A stretch of DNA of 64,000 bases from Oscillospiraceae bacterium (GTDB lineage: Bacteria; Bacillota; Clostridia; Oscillospirales; CAG-272). Below, one piece after another: positions 2,890-30,618 of this stretch. The translations under genes and the position numbers were made by a program. Within the stretch, counting starts at the first letter, position 1; each line of letters begins with the position of its first letter. The notes under the pieces were generated by a model. It ran no database searches. It was not told the origin of the DNA and worked only from the letters and a program-made list of their open reading frames with translations. The stretch is taken from contig SVRM01000005.1 in NCBI GenBank assembly GCA_015064785.1, positions 362 to 64,361 of the forward strand, written 5' to 3'.

Positions 2890-4308
2890 ATGCCGCCCAC
2901 ACATCTGCCCGATACCTATGCCCAATCAAAGGAAGCACTCGATGCCCTGTTTTCCTATCCCGACAATTTCGGGATTGTCCGGCGTGAGCTGACCGTCGGC
3001 GGCCGGCCTGCCGTTCTGTACTATGCCGAGGCGCTGTGCGATACCGCTGTGACCGAACGTGTTCTCGCCTTCTGCAAGGACAGCACCGACACCGCGCCCA
3101 AAGAAACCGCCGAAGCCTTCTGCGCCCAATCCATTTCCTATGCCGAAACGGAGATTTCCGATGACCCGTGTATCCTTCATGCCGGATGCATGACCGGATG
3201 TCTGCTGCTTCTGCATTCCGCCTATCCGTCTCGCGGGCTTCTGATCAAAGCAAGAAACATCCCCTCCCGCAGTCTCGAGGAGCCGGAACACGACAAGGTT
3301 CTGCGCGGTGCCCATGTCGGCTTTGTCGAGGTTCTGCCGCGCAACTGTGCCATGATCCGACGCCAGCTGCCGACACCGTCGCTTGTTATGAAGAATATTC
3401 CCGTCGGATCCGCATCCCGGACCAATGTTGTGCTGTGTTATCTGCGCGGACGAGCAGATGAAGCGTATCTCTCGTATCTGGAAAAAAAGCTGTCGGAAAT
3501 CCATACCGACAATCTGTGCATGGGAACGCAGAGTCTGGCAGAATGCCTTGTCAAACGGCGCGTCTGGAATCCGTTTCCGCGCTTCCGTTACACCGAACGT
3601 CCCGATGCCGCCGCCGCGTCGCTGTGCGAGGGCAGTATCCTTGTTCTGGTCGACGGCGCACCGCAGGCCATGATTCTGCCGGTCTCGGTCTTTTCCTTTT
3701 TGCAGGAAACCAACGATTTTTATCTGGCACCCCTTACCGCCACGTATCTGCGGATCGTGCGCCTGCTCAGTTACCTGCTCTCGCTGTATCTGACACCGCT
3801 GTGGTATGCCATTGTCACAGATACACCGCCGCTGCCGGGCTGGCTGTCGTTCCTGTCACAGACAGAGGAGGCGCGCGTCCCCATCCTCGTTCAGTTTCTG
3901 CTGATCGAGGTCGCCGTCGATATGCTGAAGCTCGCTTCCATGAACACACCGAATGCACTGTCCAATTCCCTCTCCGTCATCGGCGGTCTGATTCTCGGCG
4001 AGTTTGCAATCGAGGTCGGATGGTTCATGCCCGAAACCATTCTGTATATGGCAATCGTCTCCATCACACATTTCACCCAGCACAATTATGAGCTGGGCTA
4101 CGCCTTCAAATACGTCCGCATCGCCATGCTCTGTCTGACTGCCCTCTGCGGCTGGTGGGGCATTCTGCTCGGAACCGCTCTGCTGGTCATTCTGCTGATC
4201 ACCGCACCGACACCGGAGGACAAACAGCGGTATTTCTATCCGCTCATTCCCTTCGACGGTCCGGCTCTGGCATCGCTGTTCATCCGCCGCAGAAAGGAGC
4301 TGCCATAG
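2890..4308 (+). CDS. Spore germination protein, GerA family (GerxA/SpoVAF-like A subunit)
   Basis: 472 aa. Soluble N-terminal domain followed by a polytopic C-terminus. GerA-family stretches are present (LVLVDGAPQAMILPVSVFSFLQETNDFYLAPLTATYLRIVRLL). RBS GAAAGGAA precedes the ATG. Confidence 0.85.
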   Translation: MPPTHLPDTYAQSKEALDALFSYPDNFGIVRRELTVGGRPAVLYYAEALCDTAVTERVLAFCKDSTDTAPKETAEAFCAQSISYAETEISDDPCILHAGCMTGCLLLLHSAYPSRGLLIKARNIPSRSLEEPEHDKVLRGAHVGFVEVLPRNCAMIRRQLPTPSLVMKNIPVGSASRTNVVLCYLRGRADEAYLSYLEKKLSEIHTDNLCMGTQSLAECLVKRRVWNPFPRFRYTERPDAAAASLCEGSILVLVDGAPQAMILPVSVFSFLQETNDFYLAPLTATYLRIVRLLSYLLSLYLTPLWYAIVTDTPPLPGWLSFLSQTEEARVPILVQFLLIEVAVDMLKLASMNTPNALSNSLSVIGGLILGEFAIEVGWFMPETILYMAIVSITHFTQHNYELGYAFKYVRIAMLCLTALCGWWGILLGTALLVILLITAPTPEDKQRYFYPLIPFDGPALASLFIRRRKELP

Positions 4309-19578: not shown

Positions 19579-20133
19579 TCAGATTTCCATGATTTCCTTG
19601 GTCTTGGCTTCCGTGACCTTGTCAAGCTGCTTGACGTACTTGTCGGTCAGATCCTGGACTTCCTTTTCGGAGGCCTTCTGTTCGTCCTCGGTCATCGTGC
19701 CGGCCTTCTTCAGCTCCTTGCACTTGTCGTTTGCATCGCGGCGGATGTTGCGCAGTGCAACCTTGGCAGCTTCACCCTTCTTGGAGATGTCCTTTGCCAG
19801 TTCCTTTCTGCGTTCCTCAGTCAGCGGCGGGAAGGACAGGCGGAGCATAGAGCCGTCGTTCTGCGGATTGATGCCGAGATCGGATGCCTGAATTGCCTTT
19901 TCGATTGCCTTGAGCGTGGTCTTATCCCACGGGGTGATGGTGATGGTTCTTGCGTCCGGAACGGAGACCTGCGCAACAGCGGTGATCTGTGTGGGAGAGC
20001 CGTAGTAATCGACGGTGATCTTATCGAGGACACCGGGGTTTGCGCGTCCAGCACGGATTGACTTCAGTTCGTTTTCATATGCATCAATGCTCTTCTGCAT
20101 CTTTCTTTCATAATCTTTGACATCCAGTTTCAT
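19579..20133 (-). CDS. frr: Ribosome recycling factor
   Basis: 184 aa, canonical RRF (MKLDVKDYERKMQKSIDAYENELKSIRAGRANPGVLD...). RBS GGAGGTAT. Confidence 0.95.
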   Translation of the reverse strand: MKLDVKDYERKMQKSIDAYENELKSIRAGRANPGVLDKITVDYYGSPTQITAVAQVSVPDARTITITPWDKTTLKAIEKAIQASDLGINPQNDGSMLRLSFPPLTEERRKELAKDISKKGEAAKVALRNIRRDANDKCKELKKAGTMTEDEQKASEKEVQDLTDKYVKQLDKVTEAKTKEIMEI

Positions 20134-20278
20134 AACGGAAATACCTCCACAAATTAAAATTTCACATCCGGATGCCGACGTTCGTGCGCATCCGTGATTC
20201 TACCATATATTTTACTATGAAATCCTTGATTTGTAAACAGATTTCTGTAAATTTTTTCGGAATTTTCAAAAGATTTCA

Positions 20279-20312
20279 GAAAAAACACATCCCGCACACG
20301 CGGTACGGGATG
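20279..20312 (-). terminator. Intrinsic terminator of lipoprotein gene A
   Basis: On the minus strand a CATCCCG...CGGGATG hairpin is followed by TGTTTTTTC. It begins about 10 nt after the stop at 20322. It is duplicated at 23114-23148. Confidence 0.6.
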
Positions 20313-20321
20313 ATTTTCGGG

Positions 20322-22685
20322 TTATTGACGCTCTGCCAAACAGAGACTGACGCGGGACTGGATGATTTTCTGGGTTTCTTCCAGAGTGCGTACACCGCCG
20401 AGATAGGAATCGAGTTCTTCTGACAAAATCTCCATGACTGTCGTTTCCGCATAGGTCTGCATCGGTGTATTGAAAAACAGGGTTCGCAGCTGTTCTGTCA
20501 CATCCGGCACAAACGCATAACAGGTATAATACGGCTCTCCCCACACATTTCTGCCGCTCATGTATGTTTCCAGCTTCGGATCATCCGGCGCAAACGACCG
20601 TTCATAAGCGCGGCTCAGAATCACGGTTTCCGCACCGTTTGAGACAATGCTCGACGTATGATACGTATCCTCATTGACAAACAAATGCTGTGTTTTTCCA
20701 AGCTCCTGTTCCATCGCCTGCATCGTCGGCGGCAGACCGGTATTCTCCAGAGCCGCACTGTTCTGAATCAGATCGGACAGCAAAAACCGCAGATATTCCA
20801 TAGACCCGCGCTGAACGGGTGACGATGCGGAAATCATCAAATCCATATTCATCGAAGATAAATAACCGATCGATGTACCGTCAGACGGATAACCGCAGAA
20901 TGAAATGTCAATTCCGTCCAGTTCACGCAGTGCCGCTGCCATGGAAGCCATTCCGTCCAGCGGCAGGCACAGATACCGCAGCCGCCCCGATGTCAGATTT
21001 TCCGTAAGTTTTTCCGAGGTAATGCCGATACCGCCGATGCCCGACGGTGCAAAATAGCCCAGATCCGTATCATTGACCGAGGAAAGCGCTGCATAAAACG
21101 CAAGAAATTCACCGAACAGCGCACTGTCAAAACTGCATGTTCCGGCATCGTCGTCAATGAACGCTTCCACCGCACATTCCAACAGCATCCGCTCCTGATT
21201 GGGCTTCATCGAAAACAAAGCATCCCCCTCTGCAAGCGATTCTGCTTCCTCCAACAGCCGCTCCAATGTCAGCGCAGAACCGTCTGCATCCGGTGCGGCA
21301 GTCACCAGCGTATCGACCGAAATACGGAGGGGAATTGCATATAGTCCCGCATCCGCCGTTTCAAAAGCACTTTGCACACAGGGCAGAAGCTGATCTTTGA
21401 AATACGGCGACAAGTCAAGATATCCCTGTTTGCGGGAAATATCGCGGATTTCTTTCGCAAACGCATCACGGACAATCATGACATCCGGTGCGTTTCCGGA
21501 AAGTACATCCTCGCGGTAGGCCTGTATCTCCTCATCGCGCGTCAGATCAGTCTGATCTTCAGCGTAATTATGAACCGTTACATGGTATTCCGCATTCGTG
21601 CGGTTGAACAGTGCCGCACTGTTAGAAACGACATCCGCAAATCCACCGATCAGACCGACACGAATCTCCAGTTTTCCAGAATCCGACGGCGCTTTTTTCA
21701 GTATGGCAAGATCTCTTTTTTCAATAAACGGATCCGTCACCCATGCAAGGTATGTTTCCTCATCGAAAACATGAATCACATCCGTGTTTTCTGCTGATAA
21801 GAATGCATCGCCGTGCGCCATCAGAAGCACCGCTGTATCCGATGCCGCATCATATCCCCAGACACCGTCCCCGTCATGATAATACCGATCGTATCCGGGA
21901 CCGTATAAAATCGAATGGGACCGATCAATTCCCGACACCGCCGATAACGAAGCGTCATGAACCAGCTTCCCCCGTTCGGTGTCATAGACATGGTGTATCC
22001 CGCCCTGCGTCGCAAAATCAAACAATGTCACAACGACAGGGGAACCGGGCACCGCATGAAACCGCTGTACCCATCCGCCGATGGAATCGGCTGCCAGAAC
22101 CGTCAGATCGGAATCCAGATGATAAAACCATCCGCCGACCTGTACCGCAAAGCTGCCATCCTCCAATACCTGCACCGCACAGTCGATATTATCCGCGTTT
22201 TCGAGGCTGACCTCCGATTGGATCGTTCCGGTTTCATCCGACAAACGCACAACGGTCATCCCATCCTCCAAACTTGGCGAAAACAGCAGAAACGAACCGT
22301 TCGGCAGCAAATAAGACAGCGATGCCTGTACCGGAGCCGGATGAACCACCGTTTTGATATGCGCACCTGTGCGGTCATATATCCATGTTTCATCCCGCTT
22401 CGTTTCGGGATTGCTGTACTGAAAATGAATCTCATCTCCGAACACATGAACATACGGATGCAGATATGCAGTATCCATCATCAGATAATGATCCGCAGGT
22501 ATCGAGAGAAAAGAAAGCTCAAACCTGTTTTCGGAGCAGTAATACCGTTCTGCACCGGCGGTGTCCACCAATACCGCACGATCAGACGACAAGGCATCCG
22601 TATCATGCGTCAAATCATTCTCTCCGTGTGTACAGCCGTTCAAAAACAGAATCACAAGCACAAGTACAAAAAGATATTTCCTCAT
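20322..22685 (-). CDS. Large lipoprotein A: divergent beta-rich N-terminal half plus SBP-like C-terminal half
   Basis: 787 aa. Signal peptide plus Cys (VLVILFLNGCTHG). The C-terminal half has patches reminiscent of solute-binding proteins (NAPDVMIV, LDLSPYFKDQLLPCV, LYAIPL, CGYPSDG). It is a paralog of the ORF at 23179-25677, with a shared C-terminus KIIQSRVSLCLAERQ. It has its own RBS (GAGGAAG), promoter and terminator. Confidence 0.8.
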   Translation of the reverse strand: MRKYLFVLVLVILFLNGCTHGENDLTHDTDALSSDRAVLVDTAGAERYYCSENRFELSFLSIPADHYLMMDTAYLHPYVHVFGDEIHFQYSNPETKRDETWIYDRTGAHIKTVVHPAPVQASLSYLLPNGSFLLFSPSLEDGMTVVRLSDETGTIQSEVSLENADNIDCAVQVLEDGSFAVQVGGWFYHLDSDLTVLAADSIGGWVQRFHAVPGSPVVVTLFDFATQGGIHHVYDTERGKLVHDASLSAVSGIDRSHSILYGPGYDRYYHDGDGVWGYDAASDTAVLLMAHGDAFLSAENTDVIHVFDEETYLAWVTDPFIEKRDLAILKKAPSDSGKLEIRVGLIGGFADVVSNSAALFNRTNAEYHVTVHNYAEDQTDLTRDEEIQAYREDVLSGNAPDVMIVRDAFAKEIRDISRKQGYLDLSPYFKDQLLPCVQSAFETADAGLYAIPLRISVDTLVTAAPDADGSALTLERLLEEAESLAEGDALFSMKPNQERMLLECAVEAFIDDDAGTCSFDSALFGEFLAFYAALSSVNDTDLGYFAPSGIGGIGITSEKLTENLTSGRLRYLCLPLDGMASMAAALRELDGIDISFCGYPSDGTSIGYLSSMNMDLMISASSPVQRGSMEYLRFLLSDLIQNSAALENTGLPPTMQAMEQELGKTQHLFVNEDTYHTSSIVSNGAETVILSRAYERSFAPDDPKLETYMSGRNVWGEPYYTCYAFVPDVTEQLRTLFFNTPMQTYAETTVMEILSEELDSYLGGVRTLEETQKIIQSRVSLCLAERQ

Positions 22686-22729
22686 TTTTTCTTCCTCAGT
22701 TAAGATATTATGCTGTTATTTCTGTTATC

Positions 22730-22758
22730 ATTATATCATATTACCATTTTCACGTCAA
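22730..22758 (-). promoter_or_regulatory. Candidate sigma-A promoter of lipoprotein gene A
   Basis: On the minus strand: TTGACG (22758-22753), a 17-nt spacer, then TATAAT (22735-22730). Confidence 0.6.
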
Positions 22759-22829
22759 CAAATGACAAGCCGCTTATTTTTTTCTCCTGTTTGCACAAAT
22801 CAAACATACCGATTTTGTGAAATGAGCAC

Positions 22830-22863
22830 AAAAAAACGGCACAGCTGTTACACTGTGCCGTTT
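22830..22863 (-). terminator. Duplicated copy of the tsf intrinsic terminator
   Basis: Identical to 25824-25857: a CGGCACAG...CTGTGCCG stem followed by a T run on the minus strand. Confidence 0.6.
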
Positions 22864-22877
22864 CTGTAATACAAGAA

Positions 22878-22970
22878 TTACTTGTTGTTGACCATCTTTT
22901 CGATTTCAGCAGCAAAGTCTTCTTCTCTCTTCTGCATCTTTCTTTCATAATCTTTGACATCCAGTTTCAT
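22878..22970 (-). pseudogene. Chimeric frr'-'tsf remnant (30 codons) marking a duplication junction
   Basis: MKLDVKDYERKMQK is the first 14 codons of frr, carrying the frr RBS and promoter copy. It is fused in frame to REEDFAAEIEKMVNNK*, the last 16 codons of tsf. The junction lies in the 10-nt sequence CTCTTCTGCA (22927-22936), which is present in both parents (20090-20099 and 25921-25930). Confidence 0.8.
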
Positions 22971-23152
22971 AACGGAAATACCTCCACAAAATAAAATTTC
23001 ACATCCGGATACCGCAATCGTCCGTGTCCGGGATTCTACTATATTTTTTACTATGAAATCCTTGATTTGTAAACAGATTTCTGTAAATTTTTTGGGAATT
23101 TTCAAAAGAATCCGAAAAAACACATCCCGCACACGCGGTACGGGATGATTTT
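22927..23152. repeat. Duplicate of the frr 5' end, frr promoter/leader and lipoprotein terminator (original at 20090-20316)
   Basis: By-eye alignment shows mostly identical sequence. Differences cluster in the leader hairpin (20169-20194 vs 23004-23033), with a few substitutions elsewhere. Confidence 0.85.
23114..23148 (-). terminator. Intrinsic terminator of lipoprotein gene B
   Basis: Same CATCCCG...CGGGATG hairpin plus T run as at 20279-20312. Confidence 0.6.
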
Positions 23153-23178
23153 TGTGTGGTTGGTGGGGTCTGCATACT

Positions 23179-25677
23179 TTACTGTCTCTCTGCAAGATAG
23201 ATACTGACGCGGGACTGGATGATTTTTGTGACCTCGGTAAGCGACTTCACGCCATTCTGCCAATAGGACAGCTCCTCGGTAACAATCGCTTCCACAGTAT
23301 CGTCGCTGCCCGCTGACATATGGCAGTGATCGAGGAAGTACAGGAATGCATCGATATCCGCCTGCGGCAGTGCAACGCAGTATCCGGTCGGATCGCCGTT
23401 TTCGTCAAGCTCAAATGTCAGCGGCTCATCGGAAATGATCTCTGCCGACAGCGGTACAATCGGCGGGGTCGTGTCAAACGAAAGCGATGTCTCCCGCATC
23501 GGTGCGGCGGAGTTTCCGATATTGTGATATCGGTCTGCCGAATACGAATAATACCGGTTCTTTTCAAACAGCAGCCGGATGGCGTCCCGTGTGACAGGCA
23601 GATTCTGATGGGTATCCTCGGTCTGCCGCTCTGCATCCAGCAAAAATTGCAGAAATGCGATACTGCCCTCCGGCGCATCCGTATCGGCAAGCACTGCCGT
23701 ATAACCGAGAAGATTGACATACGCACCGCCGCCGTGATCCGACGGATAGCCGCACCAGACAAAATCCGTATCGCCGTACAGATGCCGCGCCATCATAACC
23801 TGCTCCGGCGAGTTTATCCACATATTCAAATAGGTCAGTCCGCCCTCACGCAGCCGTGCGGGAAGCGTCGGATTCGTATATCCACCGGTTCCGTCGGAAT
23901 GGGTTGTCAGATAACCGACGGTCTGATCGAGATAGGTTTCCGAAAGCTCGTCCAACAGCTCCATGACGGAACGGAATTTGTCACTGTCGTAGTCCGCCAT
24001 CCCTGCCACTGGGTCAAAGAAGTCCATGATGCCGTTGGCATACAGATACTGCTCTGCGCGCGGGTCGGAATACAGCACTTCCTTTCCGTCAAGAGACCTG
24101 ACACTGTCGATGAAGACATCCCATGTCAGAAAGTCCTCTGTTACCTCCGGCAGACAGAGAAACGTATAAATCTGCATATTCATCGGCACAGAATACAGCG
24201 CATCCCCCCATCTGACCGCATCCGTGACACAGCCGAGCATCTGATCGCCGATATACGGTGTCAGATCGAGAAAGGCATTTTTGTCATAATAGTCATCCAG
24301 CGTCACACGCGGGTCGATCATCAGCACATCCGGACGCGCTTGGTTCACCATACGGTCGGCAAGCAGCGCCTCTCGCTCCTGCTGTCCCATATTGACTACA
24401 TCAACATAATTGAGGTTGATCTCGTATTCCTCACTCTCACGGTTGAACGCAAGCACGGCGTCTCTGACCCAGTCGTTCACACCGTAATAGTCAAAGTCGA
24501 TGACCTGCTTGGGGTTTTCGTCGGGAACCATTTCGGTATGGATATAGTACAGTTTGGTATCGGTATAACGGTAATTTTCAATCCTTGATTTCGTGATATA
24601 AAAACTATGTTCATCTATCACCCATAAATTCCGATAATATAAATCTGCCGTTATGCCGCACTCCATCCAATCTGCCACTTTGGACGGCGGAAGATTATCC
24701 CGATACACGTACATACCAAGCATATCATACAAATAGAGATTTCCCTGTGTATCGGCAATCAGATTCATATGATCCTTGTCATCGGGCACACGGAACTTTT
24801 TATCTTCATAAATTCCGGTCTTCATATTCAGGATCGAACATTCCCCGACACTCCCGACAGGAAGCCATTTCATGTTACCGATATAGTCCATGAAAGATAA
24901 ATGCTTATTTCGATTGGTTAACTTCTGATATACTACCCGTCCGGCTTCCAGTGTCTGTGTTTCCCTGTGAAACAATACACTGAAAAAGCATGTTGATTCA
25001 CCACGATGCAGCAGAACAACATCTCCATCTTCGATTTCGCTTATCTTGAAATCACCGTGTGTCCAAAATTCAGGATAAACCTCGTCAAGACAGATTTCGG
25101 CACGAGGAGTACCGTCAGGCTCCGATATACCGAAATAGTACAGTGTATCTCCATCTTTTCGCTCACACCAGATCAGCGCAAAACATCCGTCAGACAGTAT
25201 ATACGCATATTCCGGCAATGCACCGCGAACCGACGGCACAGGAAGCTCCTCCATTCTCACACCATCTGCGTATGAATACAAAGATCTCTTATAACCGTTC
25301 TCCGTTTTCTGCTGCCCGTAAATAAATAATTTTCCATCTTTGACATATGTATTTGTGTAGTTTAATTCATAATCGCCGGAATACAATCCGGCAATCATTA
25401 CGATATCATCGGGCAAATCAGTTGTGATATCCACTACGGTATGCTTCAGTGTATATGGAACAAAGGATGGCACGGTTTCTGTGCTTTCCTCCGTCGCTTC
25501 CATTTCCGACAATTCTGTCATATCCGATGCATCTACCGTGTCAGCGGAATATTCTGTGACCGTTTGCTGTGTTATCACCGGTATCTTTGGCTGTTCTCCG
25601 GAACAGGAAGAAAGCAGCATACCGCACAGAATCAGCAAAATTACAACCAATCTTTCATAAACAGCATGACGCTTCAT
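23179..25677 (-). CDS. Large lipoprotein B: divergent beta-rich N-terminal half plus SBP-like C-terminal half
   Basis: The ATG at 25677 has a strong RBS (AGGAGGGAAGAGGG); the track start is at 25698. The 832-aa product has a signal peptide and lipobox (LILCGMLLSSCSG). The C-terminal half is alignable to lipoprotein A (ARPDVLMI, LDLTPYIGDQMLGCV, LYSVPM, CGYPSDHG, KIIQSRVSIYLAERQ). The N-terminal half aligns poorly. Confidence 0.8.
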   Translation of the reverse strand: MKRHAVYERLVVILLILCGMLLSSCSGEQPKIPVITQQTVTEYSADTVDASDMTELSEMEATEESTETVPSFVPYTLKHTVVDITTDLPDDIVMIAGLYSGDYELNYTNTYVKDGKLFIYGQQKTENGYKRSLYSYADGVRMEELPVPSVRGALPEYAYILSDGCFALIWCERKDGDTLYYFGISEPDGTPRAEICLDEVYPEFWTHGDFKISEIEDGDVVLLHRGESTCFFSVLFHRETQTLEAGRVVYQKLTNRNKHLSFMDYIGNMKWLPVGSVGECSILNMKTGIYEDKKFRVPDDKDHMNLIADTQGNLYLYDMLGMYVYRDNLPPSKVADWMECGITADLYYRNLWVIDEHSFYITKSRIENYRYTDTKLYYIHTEMVPDENPKQVIDFDYYGVNDWVRDAVLAFNRESEEYEINLNYVDVVNMGQQEREALLADRMVNQARPDVLMIDPRVTLDDYYDKNAFLDLTPYIGDQMLGCVTDAVRWGDALYSVPMNMQIYTFLCLPEVTEDFLTWDVFIDSVRSLDGKEVLYSDPRAEQYLYANGIMDFFDPVAGMADYDSDKFRSVMELLDELSETYLDQTVGYLTTHSDGTGGYTNPTLPARLREGGLTYLNMWINSPEQVMMARHLYGDTDFVWCGYPSDHGGGAYVNLLGYTAVLADTDAPEGSIAFLQFLLDAERQTEDTHQNLPVTRDAIRLLFEKNRYYSYSADRYHNIGNSAAPMRETSLSFDTTPPIVPLSAEIISDEPLTFELDENGDPTGYCVALPQADIDAFLYFLDHCHMSAGSDDTVEAIVTEELSYWQNGVKSLTEVTKIIQSRVSIYLAERQ

Positions 25678-25723
25678 CCCTCTTCCCTCCTGTTGCAAAT
25701 TATCTGTGGATTATCCTGTTACC

Positions 25724-25752
25724 ATTATATCATAATTCCGTCATCACGTCAA
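25724..25752 (-). promoter_or_regulatory. Candidate sigma-A promoter of lipoprotein gene B
   Basis: On the minus strand: TTGACG (25752-25747), a 17-nt spacer, then TATAAT (25729-25724). Confidence 0.6.
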
Positions 25753-25823
25753 CAAATGACAAGCCGCTTATTTTTTTCTTCTGTTTGCACAAATCAAACA
25801 TACCGATTTTGTGAAATGAGCAC

Positions 25824-25857
25824 AAAAAAACGGCACAGCTGTTACACTGTGCCGTTT
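25824..25857 (-). terminator. Intrinsic terminator of tsf
   Basis: On the minus strand a CGGCACAG...CTGTGCCG hairpin is flanked by AAA/TTT and followed by a run of seven T. It lies 15 nt after the tsf stop. Confidence 0.7.
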
Positions 25858-25871
25858 CTGTAATACAAGAA

Positions 25872-26804
25872 TTACTTGTTGTTGACCATCTTTTCGATTT
25901 CAGCAGCAAAGTCTTCTTCTCTCTTCTGCAGGCCTTCGCCCTTTTCATAGCGGAAGAAGTTTGCAACCTTGATGGAGCCGCCGAATGCCTTGCCGGAATC
26001 TGCGAGATACTTTGCAACGGATTCCTTGTTTTCAGCCTTGACATATTCCTGTTCGAGCAGGCAGTTTGCTTCGTAGAACTTGCCGAGACGACCGACAACG
26101 ATCTTTTCGAGAACCTGCTGCGGCTTCTTTGCGTTTGCAGGATCGTTTGCAAGCTGTGCGAGCAGGACAGACTTTTCTTCTTCGATAACGGAAGCGGGAA
26201 CGTCCTCACGTGCAATGTACGGAACTGCAGCCTGTGCAGCAACGTGCAGAGCGATGTTCTTCTTGACTTCTGCGTAGCCTTCGTTTGCAGCTGCAGCTTC
26301 GTCAGATTCGAACTTGACAATGACACCGATGGAGCCTTTGCCGTGGATATAGGAAACGAGGTCGCCTTCGATGATATCGAAGCGGCGGATGGACATATTT
26401 TCACCGATGGTGAAGATCATCTGCTTGAGCTGTGCTTCAACATTGGTTTCACCTTCATAGGTGCAAGCGAGAAGTGCTGCAACGTCAGCGGGCTTTTCGG
26501 TGATGATGATGTGGAGCAGCTGTGCAACGAATGCCTTGAAGGTATCGTTCTTTGCAACGAAGTCGGTTTCGGAGTTGACTTCGATGATGGCACCGACACC
26601 GTTTTCGATTGCGATGTCAACCAGACCTTCAGCGGCGATTCTGTCTGCCTTCTTTGCAGCGACAGCAATGCCTCTTTCACGAAGGATCTTGATTGCGTCG
26701 TCCATGTTGCCGTTTGCTTCTACGAGTGCGTTCTTGCACTCCATCATGCCGCAGCCTGTCTTCTTGCGAAGCTCAGCTACGTCCTTTGCAGAAATGTTAG
26801 CCAT
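25872..26804 (-). CDS. tsf: Translation elongation factor Ts
   Basis: 310 aa. The N-terminal UBA-like motif (AKDVAELRKKTGCGMMECKNALVEANGNMDDAIKILRERG) is canonical EF-Ts. Confidence 0.96.
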   Translation of the reverse strand: MANISAKDVAELRKKTGCGMMECKNALVEANGNMDDAIKILRERGIAVAAKKADRIAAEGLVDIAIENGVGAIIEVNSETDFVAKNDTFKAFVAQLLHIIITEKPADVAALLACTYEGETNVEAQLKQMIFTIGENMSIRRFDIIEGDLVSYIHGKGSIGVIVKFESDEAAAANEGYAEVKKNIALHVAAQAAVPYIAREDVPASVIEEEKSVLLAQLANDPANAKKPQQVLEKIVVGRLGKFYEANCLLEQEYVKAENKESVAKYLADSGKAFGGSIKVANFFRYEKGEGLQKREEDFAAEIEKMVNNK

Positions 26805-28891: not shown

Positions 28892-29425
28892 ATGCGCCGC
28901 AGTCCTCTGACCACTGTTATCCTGATCATCCTGTCATGTATGCTGACAGGATGTTCCCTTTCTCTGCCGCCCCCGTCACCGCAAAAACTGCTCTCCGTCT
29001 TCACGCAATCCTTCACCTGCGGTTTTTCCGTCGACGATGGAAGCGGCGGGTACAGACGTGCATCGCTTGTCCGGAGCGCGTCCGGCGATACCCTGACGGC
29101 ATACGGCGACAGCACCGATACCGTATTTTTCCATAACGGCACCCGCCTGACCCTCAAAACACGCGGCAGTGCCGATCAGCCGCCGCTGATACTCGATCTG
29201 CCCGACGGATACAGCGCGGGACTTCCCGCCTGCCTGCCGCTGTTCTCCATTCTGCCCGACGACAGCTTTTCCGCAGAACGCAGCGACGGCGGCATCACAG
29301 TCACAGGACAAAACGGCAGATACCGTGCTGTATTTTCACCGCAGGGCATACCCTGCCGCATCACACTGGACGGCATCACCGCAGTCATTGATTCCTTTGC
29401 CGTGACCGAGGTCCCCGCACAGTGA
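28892..29425 (+). CDS. Hypothetical lipoprotein
   Basis: 177 aa. Signal peptide plus lipobox (ILSCMLTGCS). RBS GGGAGGTA. Confidence 0.65.
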   Translation: MRRSPLTTVILIILSCMLTGCSLSLPPPSPQKLLSVFTQSFTCGFSVDDGSGGYRRASLVRSASGDTLTAYGDSTDTVFFHNGTRLTLKTRGSADQPPLILDLPDGYSAGLPACLPLFSILPDDSFSAERSDGGITVTGQNGRYRAVFSPQGIPCRITLDGITAVIDSFAVTEVPAQ

Positions 29426-30618
29426 AATATCCTCATTCCAAAGAGATACGGAAGATAGATCAAATCATGGAACTGTTATCAAAACAACGGAAAGCCAAGC
29501 TCGAGGCATGTATCAGTCTGGAGCATCTGGTTCACAACTTCAACGCCGTCCGTGCCGTCACCGACAGCCGCATCTGCTGTGTCATCAAGGCAGACGCCTA
29601 CGGCCACGGCGCATGGCAGTGCGCAAGAACCCTTGCCGCGGCAGGCGCTGACTTTTTTGCCGTCTCCTCGATTGCGGAAGCGGAGGAGGTCCGTCTGGCA
29701 CTCGCCGATTACGGCGATGCAATCGGCATTCTGATTCTCGGACATACCCTGCCCGCCGATGCCGATCTTCTGATCCGCTACAACATCAGTCAGACCGTCT
29801 ACTCTGCCGCCTACGCCGATGCGCTGTGCAGTGCCATCCGCGACTATAAGCTCGACGGCATTCTTCCGCCGGACGCCCGACTGAAGATTCACATCAAAAT
29901 CGACACCGGTATGAACCGCCTCGGCTTTTCCCCGGACGATACCGACGGCATGGCAGCACTCGGATCGGTCCGCGATTTCCGTGTCGAGGGTATCTTCACG
30001 CATTTTGCGCAGGCAGACACACCGTCCTCGCCGATGACCGAGGCACAGTTTGCCGCGTTCTGCGATGCACTGGATGCACTGAAGCGCCGCGGAATCACGC
30101 CGCCGCTCCGCCACGTATGCAACTCTGCCGCCATCACAAATTTCCCGCACATGCATCTGGACATGGTGCGCTTCGGCATTGAGCTGTACGGACTAATGCC
30201 GTCCGCCGATACCGCGCTTCTGCCCATCAAGCCGGTCATGACACTGAAAACCGTGATTTCTCACATCCACACCGTCCCAAAAGGGGAACCCATCGGCTAC
30301 GGCGCGGCATACATCCCTGACCGTACTCTCCGCATTGCCACACTGCCCATCGGATATGCCGACGGCTTCATCCGAGCCTATGCCGAAGGCGGCTGTGCTG
30401 TGATCCGCGGTCAAGACGCACCGATCTGCGGACGCATCTGCATGGATCAATGCATGGTCGATGTCACCGACATTCCCGCCGCCCGCATCGGTGATGAGGT
30501 GATTCTGTTCGGCGAAGGCGCACCCTCCGCCGATGAAATTGCCGCACGCGCAGGCACCATCGGCTATGAAGTGCTGTGCCTGATCGGCAAGCGGGTTCCG
30601 CGCGTCTATACAAAATAA
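29422..30618 (+). CDS. alr: Alanine racemase
   Basis: PLP-lysine motif (VIKADAYGHGA) and a typical C-terminal beta domain. A GTG start at 29422 overlaps the upstream stop. The ATG at 29467 is an alternative start. Confidence 0.92.
   Translation: MKYPHSKEIRKIDQIMELLSKQRKAKLEACISLEHLVHNFNAVRAVTDSRICCVIKADAYGHGAWQCARTLAAAGADFFAVSSIAEAEEVRLALADYGDAIGILILGHTLPADADLLIRYNISQTVYSAAYADALCSAIRDYKLDGILPPDARLKIHIKIDTGMNRLGFSPDDTDGMAALGSVRDFRVEGIFTHFAQADTPSSPMTEAQFAAFCDALDALKRRGITPPLRHVCNSAAITNFPHMHLDMVRFGIELYGLMPSADTALLPIKPVMTLKTVISHIHTVPKGEPIGYGAAYIPDRTLRIATLPIGYADGFIRAYAEGGCAVIRGQDAPICGRICMDQCMVDVTDIPAARIGDEVILFGEGAPSADEIAARAGTIGYEVLCLIGKRVPRVYTK

Follow-up and report, generated by a model that had tools for sequence, protein, structure and literature searches.

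Two lipoprotein cassettes and a chimeric frr'-'tsf junction in the tsf-frr interval of an uncultured Oscillospiraceae bacterium

The stretch of DNA analysed here (hereafter the window) comprises 64,000 nucleotides of contig SVRM01000005.1 (positions 362 to 64,361, forward strand) from an Oscillospiraceae bacterium. In it, the interval between tsf and frr, which in Firmicutes normally holds the UMP kinase gene pyrH, carries two large lipoprotein genes, denoted lipoA and lipoB. The main feature of the interval, overlooked by the initial annotation, is a chimeric frr'-'tsf junction lying between the two cassettes. We consider it likely, with a probability of about 0.72, that this is a real hypervariable, recombining surface-lipoprotein locus in the pyrH slot of a small, uncultured herbivore-gut clade, in which two alternative alleles have been stacked, leaving the junction as a scar.

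The junction between the cassettes

Direct repeats relate the region between the two genes to both ends of the interval. The first (22722-22936 and 25716-25930, 97% identical) covers the 3' end of tsf, its terminator and the promoter region; the second (22927-23014 and 20090-20177, 98%) covers the 5' end of frr with its ribosome-binding site (RBS) and leader; further repeats (23018-23162 and 20182-20327, 81-89%) take in the frr promoter region and the terminator that follows the lipoprotein gene. The last 51 nt of tsf recur at 22878-22928 and the first 44 nt of frr at 22927-22970. The tsf-derived and the frr-derived repeats share exactly 10 nt (22927-22936; coding strand TGCAGAAGAG), a sequence that is present both in frr (codons 12-15) and in tsf (codons 292-295). 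They meet in a chimeric mini-ORF, in which the frr RBS and codons 1-14 (MKLDVKDYERKMQK) are fused in frame to tsf codons 295-310 (REEDFAAEIEKMVNNK*). Because the two sets of repeats meet in this way, the whole tsf-frr interval is, on this reading of the sequence, present twice in tandem, with the copies putatively joined by illegitimate recombination at the 10-nt microhomology. The tandem repetition of the whole interval is also the reason why the two cassettes look alike. They had initially been described as two self-contained units; the constituent elements are indeed there, but the implied independent insertions are not, and the arrangement instead appears to be two alleles of one slot, stacked by a single illegitimate junction.

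Insertion of a mobile element or phage was considered and rejected: neither an integrase, a transposase nor an inverted repeat was found, and all repeats present are copies of the tsf or frr flank.

Haplotypes of the two halves

The spacer from tsf to the lipoprotein gene is denoted IG1 and that from the lipoprotein gene to frr IG2, with the suffix A or B for the haplotype. The lipoA and lipoB products are 28% identical over their C-terminal ~448 aa and cannot be aligned over their N-terminal halves, in agreement with the divergence claimed at the outset. Despite this, the non-coding flanks of the two genes are nearly identical (97-98%).

Loci with a single cassette of either type are found in relatives. 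L084 has the order tsf-lipoB-frr, its lipoB being 97% identical at the amino acid level, and L085 has tsf-lipoB-like (86%)-frr; L086 carries the same 86% lipoB-like allele on a short contig, the flanking genes falling outside it. On the A side, L088 reads tsf-lipoA-like-frr-uppS-cdsA-dxr, and L087 reads rpsB-tsf-small ORF-lipoA-like. The tsf fossil together with IG1B (243 nt upstream of lipoB) matches the true tsf 3' end and leader of L084 at 243 of 243 positions, and IG2B is again closest to L084 (99%). The best match of IG1A is L001 (194 of 194 positions), while IG2A with the frr fossil is closest to L088 and to the second gene of L001 (95-96%). Since the flanks of each half match different single-cassette haplotypes, the two halves of the interval are, to all appearance, an A-type and a B-type segment stacked on each other, and not diverged duplicates. 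The A half would thus comprise tsf, IG1A, lipoA, IG2A and frr codons 1-14, and the B half tsf codons 295-310, IG1B, lipoB, IG2B and frr, the microhomology being the point at which illegitimate recombination would have joined them.

The spacers between paired genes in other loci have features of their own. That of L001 contains a terminator, a promoter and a small Cys-rich ORF. The Cys-rich protein (113-123 aa, with a signal peptide and CxxC motifs) is encoded directly upstream of a lipoA-like gene in L001 (9612-9983) and in L087 (1554-1895); the two copies are 65% identical and have a promoter-like TTGACA-17-TATAAT of their own. Its gene accompanies the lipoprotein gene in some cassette types, and the window has no counterpart. 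In L002 and L003 the two-gene spacers hold 22-nt tandem repeats (L002 903-964 and 3678-3773, L003 ~120-230; 2.9-4.4 copies, consensus GCCGAAACGTAAGTGAAGCCGT), placed directly 3' of the lipoprotein stop codons and with a unit that repeats the last codons of the gene, GAA CGT AAG TGA. At their 3' boundary the cassettes of L002 and L003 carry a minisatellite, which is absent from the window.

Mosaic structure of lipoA

A 150-nt sliding comparison of lipoA with the alleles of its relatives describes the gene as a three-part chimera with sharp breakpoints (the protein domains are described below). IG1A, the signal peptide and the linker are closest to the first gene of L001 (100%); most of the propeller is closest to L087 (97-100%); and the distal propeller, the solute-binding protein (SBP) domain and IG2A are closest to L088, the second gene of L001 and L005 (97-100%, with one 300-nt patch at 87-89%). 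The C-terminal half of lipoA is 95-97% identical to L088 and L005, whereas in uppS, cdsA and dxr these two loci share no more than 83-86% identity with the window, a difference which argues for recent exchange across species boundaries. The 3' end of lipoB (20322-20345) likewise points to recombination: in the window, as in L085, it reads ...SLCLAERQ* and is followed by a short spacer, while the 97%-identical allele of L084 (~3232-3279) ends ...YLAERQ* and continues into a 25-nt A-type spacer, GGTATGCAGACCCCACCAACCACAC, so that a recombination breakpoint lies inside the last codons of the gene.

In the proposed explanation, pyrH would have departed from the rpsB-tsf-pyrH-frr block and the tsf-frr gap would have turned into a hypervariable surface-lipoprotein locus. 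Strains and species would hold very different alleles in the one slot, and segmental recombination between conserved anchors would rebuild them. Going further, the gap could be a dedicated site of cassette exchange by homologous recombination, at which invariant, portable flanks move whole or partial alleles between strains and species, with stacking as a possible outcome, and in which variation at the cell surface across the population, in a propeller-SBP adhesin or receptor, is driven by phage or host-antibody pressure. The portable flanks would then be the tsf 3' end with the terminator and -35 region on one side, and the conserved C-terminal codons with the terminator and frr promoter on the other. 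We regard this extended version as doubtful.

Absence of pyrH and distribution in the lineage

No pyrH was detectable in the 64-kb window by tblastn (best E 3) with a B. subtilis PyrH query; the same query matches pyrH at 39-65% identity in 76 other loci. The reported absence of pyrH from the interval is thereby confirmed. A pyrH remnant was also considered and rejected, as the tblastn signal is absent both from the window and from the empty site of L006.

A genome scan with Frr yielded 80 loci, which were classified by tblastn. In 77 of them, labelled Oscillospiraceae, Acutalibacteraceae, Lachnospiraceae, Ruminiclostridium and others, Frr is at most 74% identical to that of the window; pyrH lies directly upstream of frr in 76 of these, and the contig of the remaining one (L013) begins at frr and is uninformative. 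The arrangement in the window is therefore unusual among Clostridia, as had been proposed.

The close clade consists of 11 contigs, namely L004-L006 from the Frr scan (Frr at least 90% identical) and L001-L003 and L084-L088 from homologue look-ups; Frr is at least 90% identical wherever a contig includes frr. The sources are metagenome-assembled genomes from roe deer, yak and other gut samples, and metagenome contigs. None of the 11 has pyrH in the slot; ten carry members of the lipoprotein family, and in L006 the slot is empty, tsf and frr being separated by 313 nt (1366-1676) that hold neither a lipoprotein gene nor pyrH. L006 has no cassette in the slot, L004, L005, L084, L085, L087 and L088 have at least one each, and for L001, L002, L003 and the window the count is at least two. 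As judged from these contigs, the loss of pyrH and the presence of lipoproteins in the slot is typical of the lineage, with highly variable content and copy number, and pyrH would have to be encoded elsewhere in the genome. The local acquisition implied by the initial annotation finds no support in the 11 relatives: the lineage-typical arrangement, which it had named as the opposing case, largely applies, although what the slot contains, and in how many copies, still varies greatly.

Within the gap of L006, homology to the window is confined to the final ~140 nt, which hold the frr promoter and leader; the ~170 nt before them show no relation to the window's tsf terminator and promoter region.

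Architecture of the lipoproteins

In the lipoA product a signal peptide with a lipobox-like motif (Cys25) is followed by a disordered linker (~23-72), then by an all-beta domain (~75-398) and finally by an alpha/beta SBP domain (~399-832). The full-length AlphaFold2 model (pLDDT 78) features a signal-peptide helix, the linker and both the all-beta and the alpha/beta domain. Modelled alone, the N-terminal domain has 24 strands and one short helix (pLDDT 83, pTM 0.86), and in a structure search it matches 179 PDB propellers at E<=1e-3, among them GH62, WD40, sialidase, BamB and the BT4663 sensor, with TM scores of 0.3-0.45 and ~10% identity. The domain is accordingly predicted to be a beta-propeller by fold class, resembling generic propellers and no specific family. 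MalE-like chains in the PDB, more than 800 in number, align to the model of residues ~399-832; the top match is CbpC of C. thermocellum (7x0o; Foldseek E=1.6e-14, TM 0.65 target-normalised; profile-to-sequence E=2.3e-12), and the C-terminal half is predicted to adopt the two-lobe fold of MalE/CUT1 binding proteins. The lipoB product probably shares this architecture, the alignment of its C-terminal part with that of lipoA suggesting the same SBP fold.

Profile searches detect the SBP relationship at the margin. The lipoA product passes the Pfam cut-offs for SBP_bac_8 (28.5 bits, cut-off 27) and SBP_bac_1 (27.3 bits, cut-off 26), and the lipoB product falls below threshold with 16.8 bits against 26. 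Two of ten family representatives pass the SBP cut-off and three more give sub-threshold scores; the similarity of the tested members to SBP_bac_8 is marginal and lies in the C-terminal half. An NCBIfam search returned no meaningful match for either protein. The early suggestion that the C-terminal halves resemble solute-binding proteins thus finds support in the marginal Pfam passes and the Foldseek and profile matches of lipoA, with lipoB below the Pfam threshold. The description of the N-terminal halves as beta-rich and of no recognised family also stands, given all-beta models that correspond to no curated family.

Both proteins have lipobox-like signal peptides, in keeping with their proposed lipoprotein nature. 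The motif of lipoA, ...MLLSS-C25, fits the pattern [LVI][ASTVI][GAS]C, and that of lipoB departs from it at position -2 (see below). The lipobox Cys column is kept in at least 90% of 14 aligned members.

An exhaustive search with a propeller HMM found only 55 clusters among 1.84 billion representatives, and nearly all members are 780-890 aa long with the domain at residues ~40-400. An alignment-based family scan of JGI metagenome contigs returned one distant locus only, L094, and a literature search for a propeller-SBP lipoprotein found nothing specific. L094 (3274-12518) and L093 (784-10698), both with distant family members (21-24% identical), each hold four consecutive paralogues of 733-778 aa, at loci unrelated to tsf-frr. 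The lipoprotein family appears to be generally prone to tandem arrays.

From the models we infer that the proteins may be surface-anchored binders of carbohydrates or oligosaccharides, derived from the binding proteins of ABC importers by addition of a variable propeller. The N-terminal propeller would add a second, highly variable interaction surface to the sugar-binding C-terminal domain. The variability would most simply stem from diversifying selection acting on a protein that is exposed, with glycan specificity, phage adsorption or host antibody as the possible cause.

Gene order, promoters and terminators

The minus-strand order rpsB, tsf, lipoA, lipoB, frr, uppS, cdsA, dxr, rseP, ispG, polC, with lipoprotein genes of 832 and 787 aa between tsf and frr, was correctly given by the initial annotation, as seen from the ORF listing and Pfam. 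The features are collected in Table 1. For lipoA, a TTG seven codons upstream of the ATG offers an alternative start, giving 839 aa.

Table 1. Positions of the features of the tsf-frr interval and its flanking genes in the window.
Feature	Position	Strand	Basis or remark
rpsB	27577-26840	minus	ORF listing and Pfam
tsf (EF-Ts), intact	25872-26804	minus	Pfam EF_TS, E=1.8e-61
tsf-frr gap	20134-25871		exactly from the tsf stop codon to the frr start codon
tsf terminator hairpin, copy 1	25826-25859	minus	-21.6 kcal/mol, z=-5.8
lipoA promoter	25724-25752	minus	11/12 consensus match
lipoA	25677-23179	minus	ORF listing; 832 aa from ATG
Terminator after lipoA	23123-23147	minus	-18.2 kcal/mol, z=-4.6
frr promoter, fossil copy	23045-23073	minus	alignment; upstream of the chimeric mini-ORF
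Junction fossil, chimeric mini-ORF of 30 codons	22878-22970	minus	direct sequence reading, repeats, tblastn with frr and tsf fragments
tsf terminator hairpin, copy 2	22832-22865	minus	predicted fold; identical to copy 1
lipoB promoter	22730-22758	minus	TTGACG-17-TATAAT, upstream TG
lipoB	22685-20322	minus	ORF listing; 787 aa
Terminator after lipoB	20288-20312	minus	predicted fold
frr promoter, native copy	20209-20237	minus	TTTACA-17-TAAAAT; also kept in empty-site L006
frr (ribosome recycling factor), intact	19579-20133	minus	Pfam RRF, E=1.3e-71

The promoters of lipoA and lipoB are both of the form TTGACG-17-TATAAT with an upstream TG, and the four hairpin terminators have predicted folds of -18 to -22 kcal/mol (z = -4.6 to -5.8). 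The promoter search and the hairpin folds agree with the terminator-promoter-gene-terminator layout first proposed for both genes. A cassette would thus be an insulated unit, made up of the tsf terminator, a strong promoter, the ~800-aa lipoprotein gene and a terminator, and followed by frr's own promoter. In the fossil copy of the frr promoter the -10 element is TAAAAA, in place of the TAAAAT found in the native copy and in the A-type locus L088, and the promoter search calls the native copy and not the fossil. Since its -10 element lacks the invariant final T, the fossil promoter may be decaying or silenced.

Elsewhere in the window, an unrelated ORF of 177 aa with a lipoprotein-like N-terminus (...LSCMLTGC) lies on the plus strand (28892-29425), upstream of an alanine racemase-like gene (29422-30618). 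L001 keeps the same neighbourhood.

Alternative explanations and mechanism of the proposed stacking

Several observations weigh against the interpretation of the interval as a recombining surface-lipoprotein locus with two stacked alleles. The main caveat is that the junction is known from one assembly only, without read-level support; a blastn-short comparison found the complete junction in no other examined locus, and an exact 30-mer across it has no match in JGI metagenome contigs. As regards the proteins, the lipobox of lipoB (...FLNG-C18) carries an atypical Asn at -2, and neither the window nor any clade locus has a permease in its tsf-frr slot, so that a transport role is conjectural. 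Finally, at codon 8 of Frr the fossil, the resident frr and L084 share a Tyr, in contrast to the Phe of all known A-type loci, which is slightly unfavourable to capture in a single step.

It is conceivable, if somewhat unlikely, that a CUT1 sugar ABC importer with its genes elsewhere uses the proteins as ordinary substrate-binding components, and that their variability reflects substrate specialisation only, and not antigenic or phage pressure. The C-terminal domain is like that of oligosaccharide-binding proteins in both fold and sequence, and distant family members (P0011 and P0014) adjoin BPD_transp_1 ABC permeases. Against this, the slot is devoid of permeases in every clade member, and the empty slot of L006 indicates that the lipoprotein gene is dispensable. 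Moreover, the divergence and mosaicism of the alleles are extreme for a metabolic binding protein, and variation is strongest in the extra propeller domain.

An assembly artefact, in which co-occurring strains with tsf-lipoA-frr and tsf-lipoB-frr were wrongly concatenated through a chimeric read or mis-join, is improbable. Both single-cassette states do occur in nature, the junction is unique to this window, and the contigs of L002, L003, L004 and L005 start or end within the locus. However, assemblers work with k-mers or overlaps far longer than a join of 10 nt, so that a graph mis-join would not be expected; the reading frame continues across the junction, which has complete copies of both spacers on its sides; and arrays of two cassettes are found independently in three relatives (L001, L002 and L003), where the spacers differ. 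An old in-situ tandem duplication, in which the coding regions diverged while the flanks stayed alike through gene conversion with the real ends of tsf and frr, is brought to mind by the contrast between flanks (97-98%) and genes (28%) and by the four-paralogue arrays of the distant relatives L093 and L094, but it is highly improbable, given that the non-coding flanks of each half match a different single-cassette haplotype at 99-100% (and lipoB matches L084 at 97-98%), that the junction is missing from every other array, and that conversion would not recreate the allele-specific leaders of another strain.

If the two halves are indeed stacked alleles, there are two routes by which they could have come together. 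The first would be a single homology-facilitated illegitimate recombination, or an unequal exchange between two haplotypes; in the second, the interval would first be duplicated in tandem and one copy then replaced by another allele. The distribution of Tyr and Phe at Frr codon 8 weakly favours the second, two-step route over single-step capture.

Relation to known systems

The locus combines known kinds of element, namely a mosaic surface-protein locus, a microhomology junction and an SBP lipoprotein with an extra domain, and is not a new category. The proteins resemble the CUT1/MalE-like binding lipoproteins of Gram-positive bacteria, such as CbpC (7x0o), in their lipobox-like signal peptide and the predicted two-lobe fold of their ~430-aa C-terminal part. 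They differ in being about twice the size, with an N-terminal beta-propeller of ~320 aa and a disordered linker, in their marginal or sub-threshold Pfam scores, in the lack of an adjoining permease or ATPase, in their tsf-frr location, and in that alleles are only 22-28% identical.

Mosaic, strain-variable surface-protein loci between conserved flanks are known in other bacteria, for example the pneumococcal pspA/pspC-type genes. In common with these, the present locus has conserved flanks and signal or C-terminal segments, hypervariable cores, a variable copy number, and sharp segmental breakpoints with near-identical blocks common to otherwise different alleles. Unlike them, it belongs to an uncultured gut commensal, encodes another fold and lies inside a core translation-factor block, and immune or phage selection is only conjectured.

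The join between otherwise unrelated genes at a 10-nt microhomology is like that of homology-facilitated illegitimate recombination or microhomology tandem duplication. Also as in homology-facilitated illegitimate recombination, there is extensive homology on one side (tsf, or frr and downstream), and foreign-haplotype DNA would have been gained with the resident genes kept. In contrast to the experimental cases, the event is here deduced from a natural genome, in which one step and duplication plus replacement are inseparable; a literature search on this process gave general background only. Compared with the canonical Firmicutes rpsB-tsf-pyrH-frr-uppS-cdsA block, the window keeps the flanking genes and their order (rpsB-tsf, and frr to polC), but the slot of the clade lacks pyrH and holds from zero to at least two lipoprotein cassettes.

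Loci of this kind break metagenome assemblies and can mislead annotation that is based on synteny. The present one, with what are probably stacked alleles here and single-allele and empty-site states in other samples, offers a clean natural example of recombination. It illustrates that the slot of an essential gene, even in a highly conserved bacterial gene block, can be vacated and taken over by an accessory locus that evolves fast. It also defines a rare, uncharacterised family of uncultured herbivore-gut Clostridia, in which a predicted beta-propeller is fused to a MalE-like domain; its members could serve as strain markers, and are candidates for a role in glycan capture or as targets of phage or antibody.

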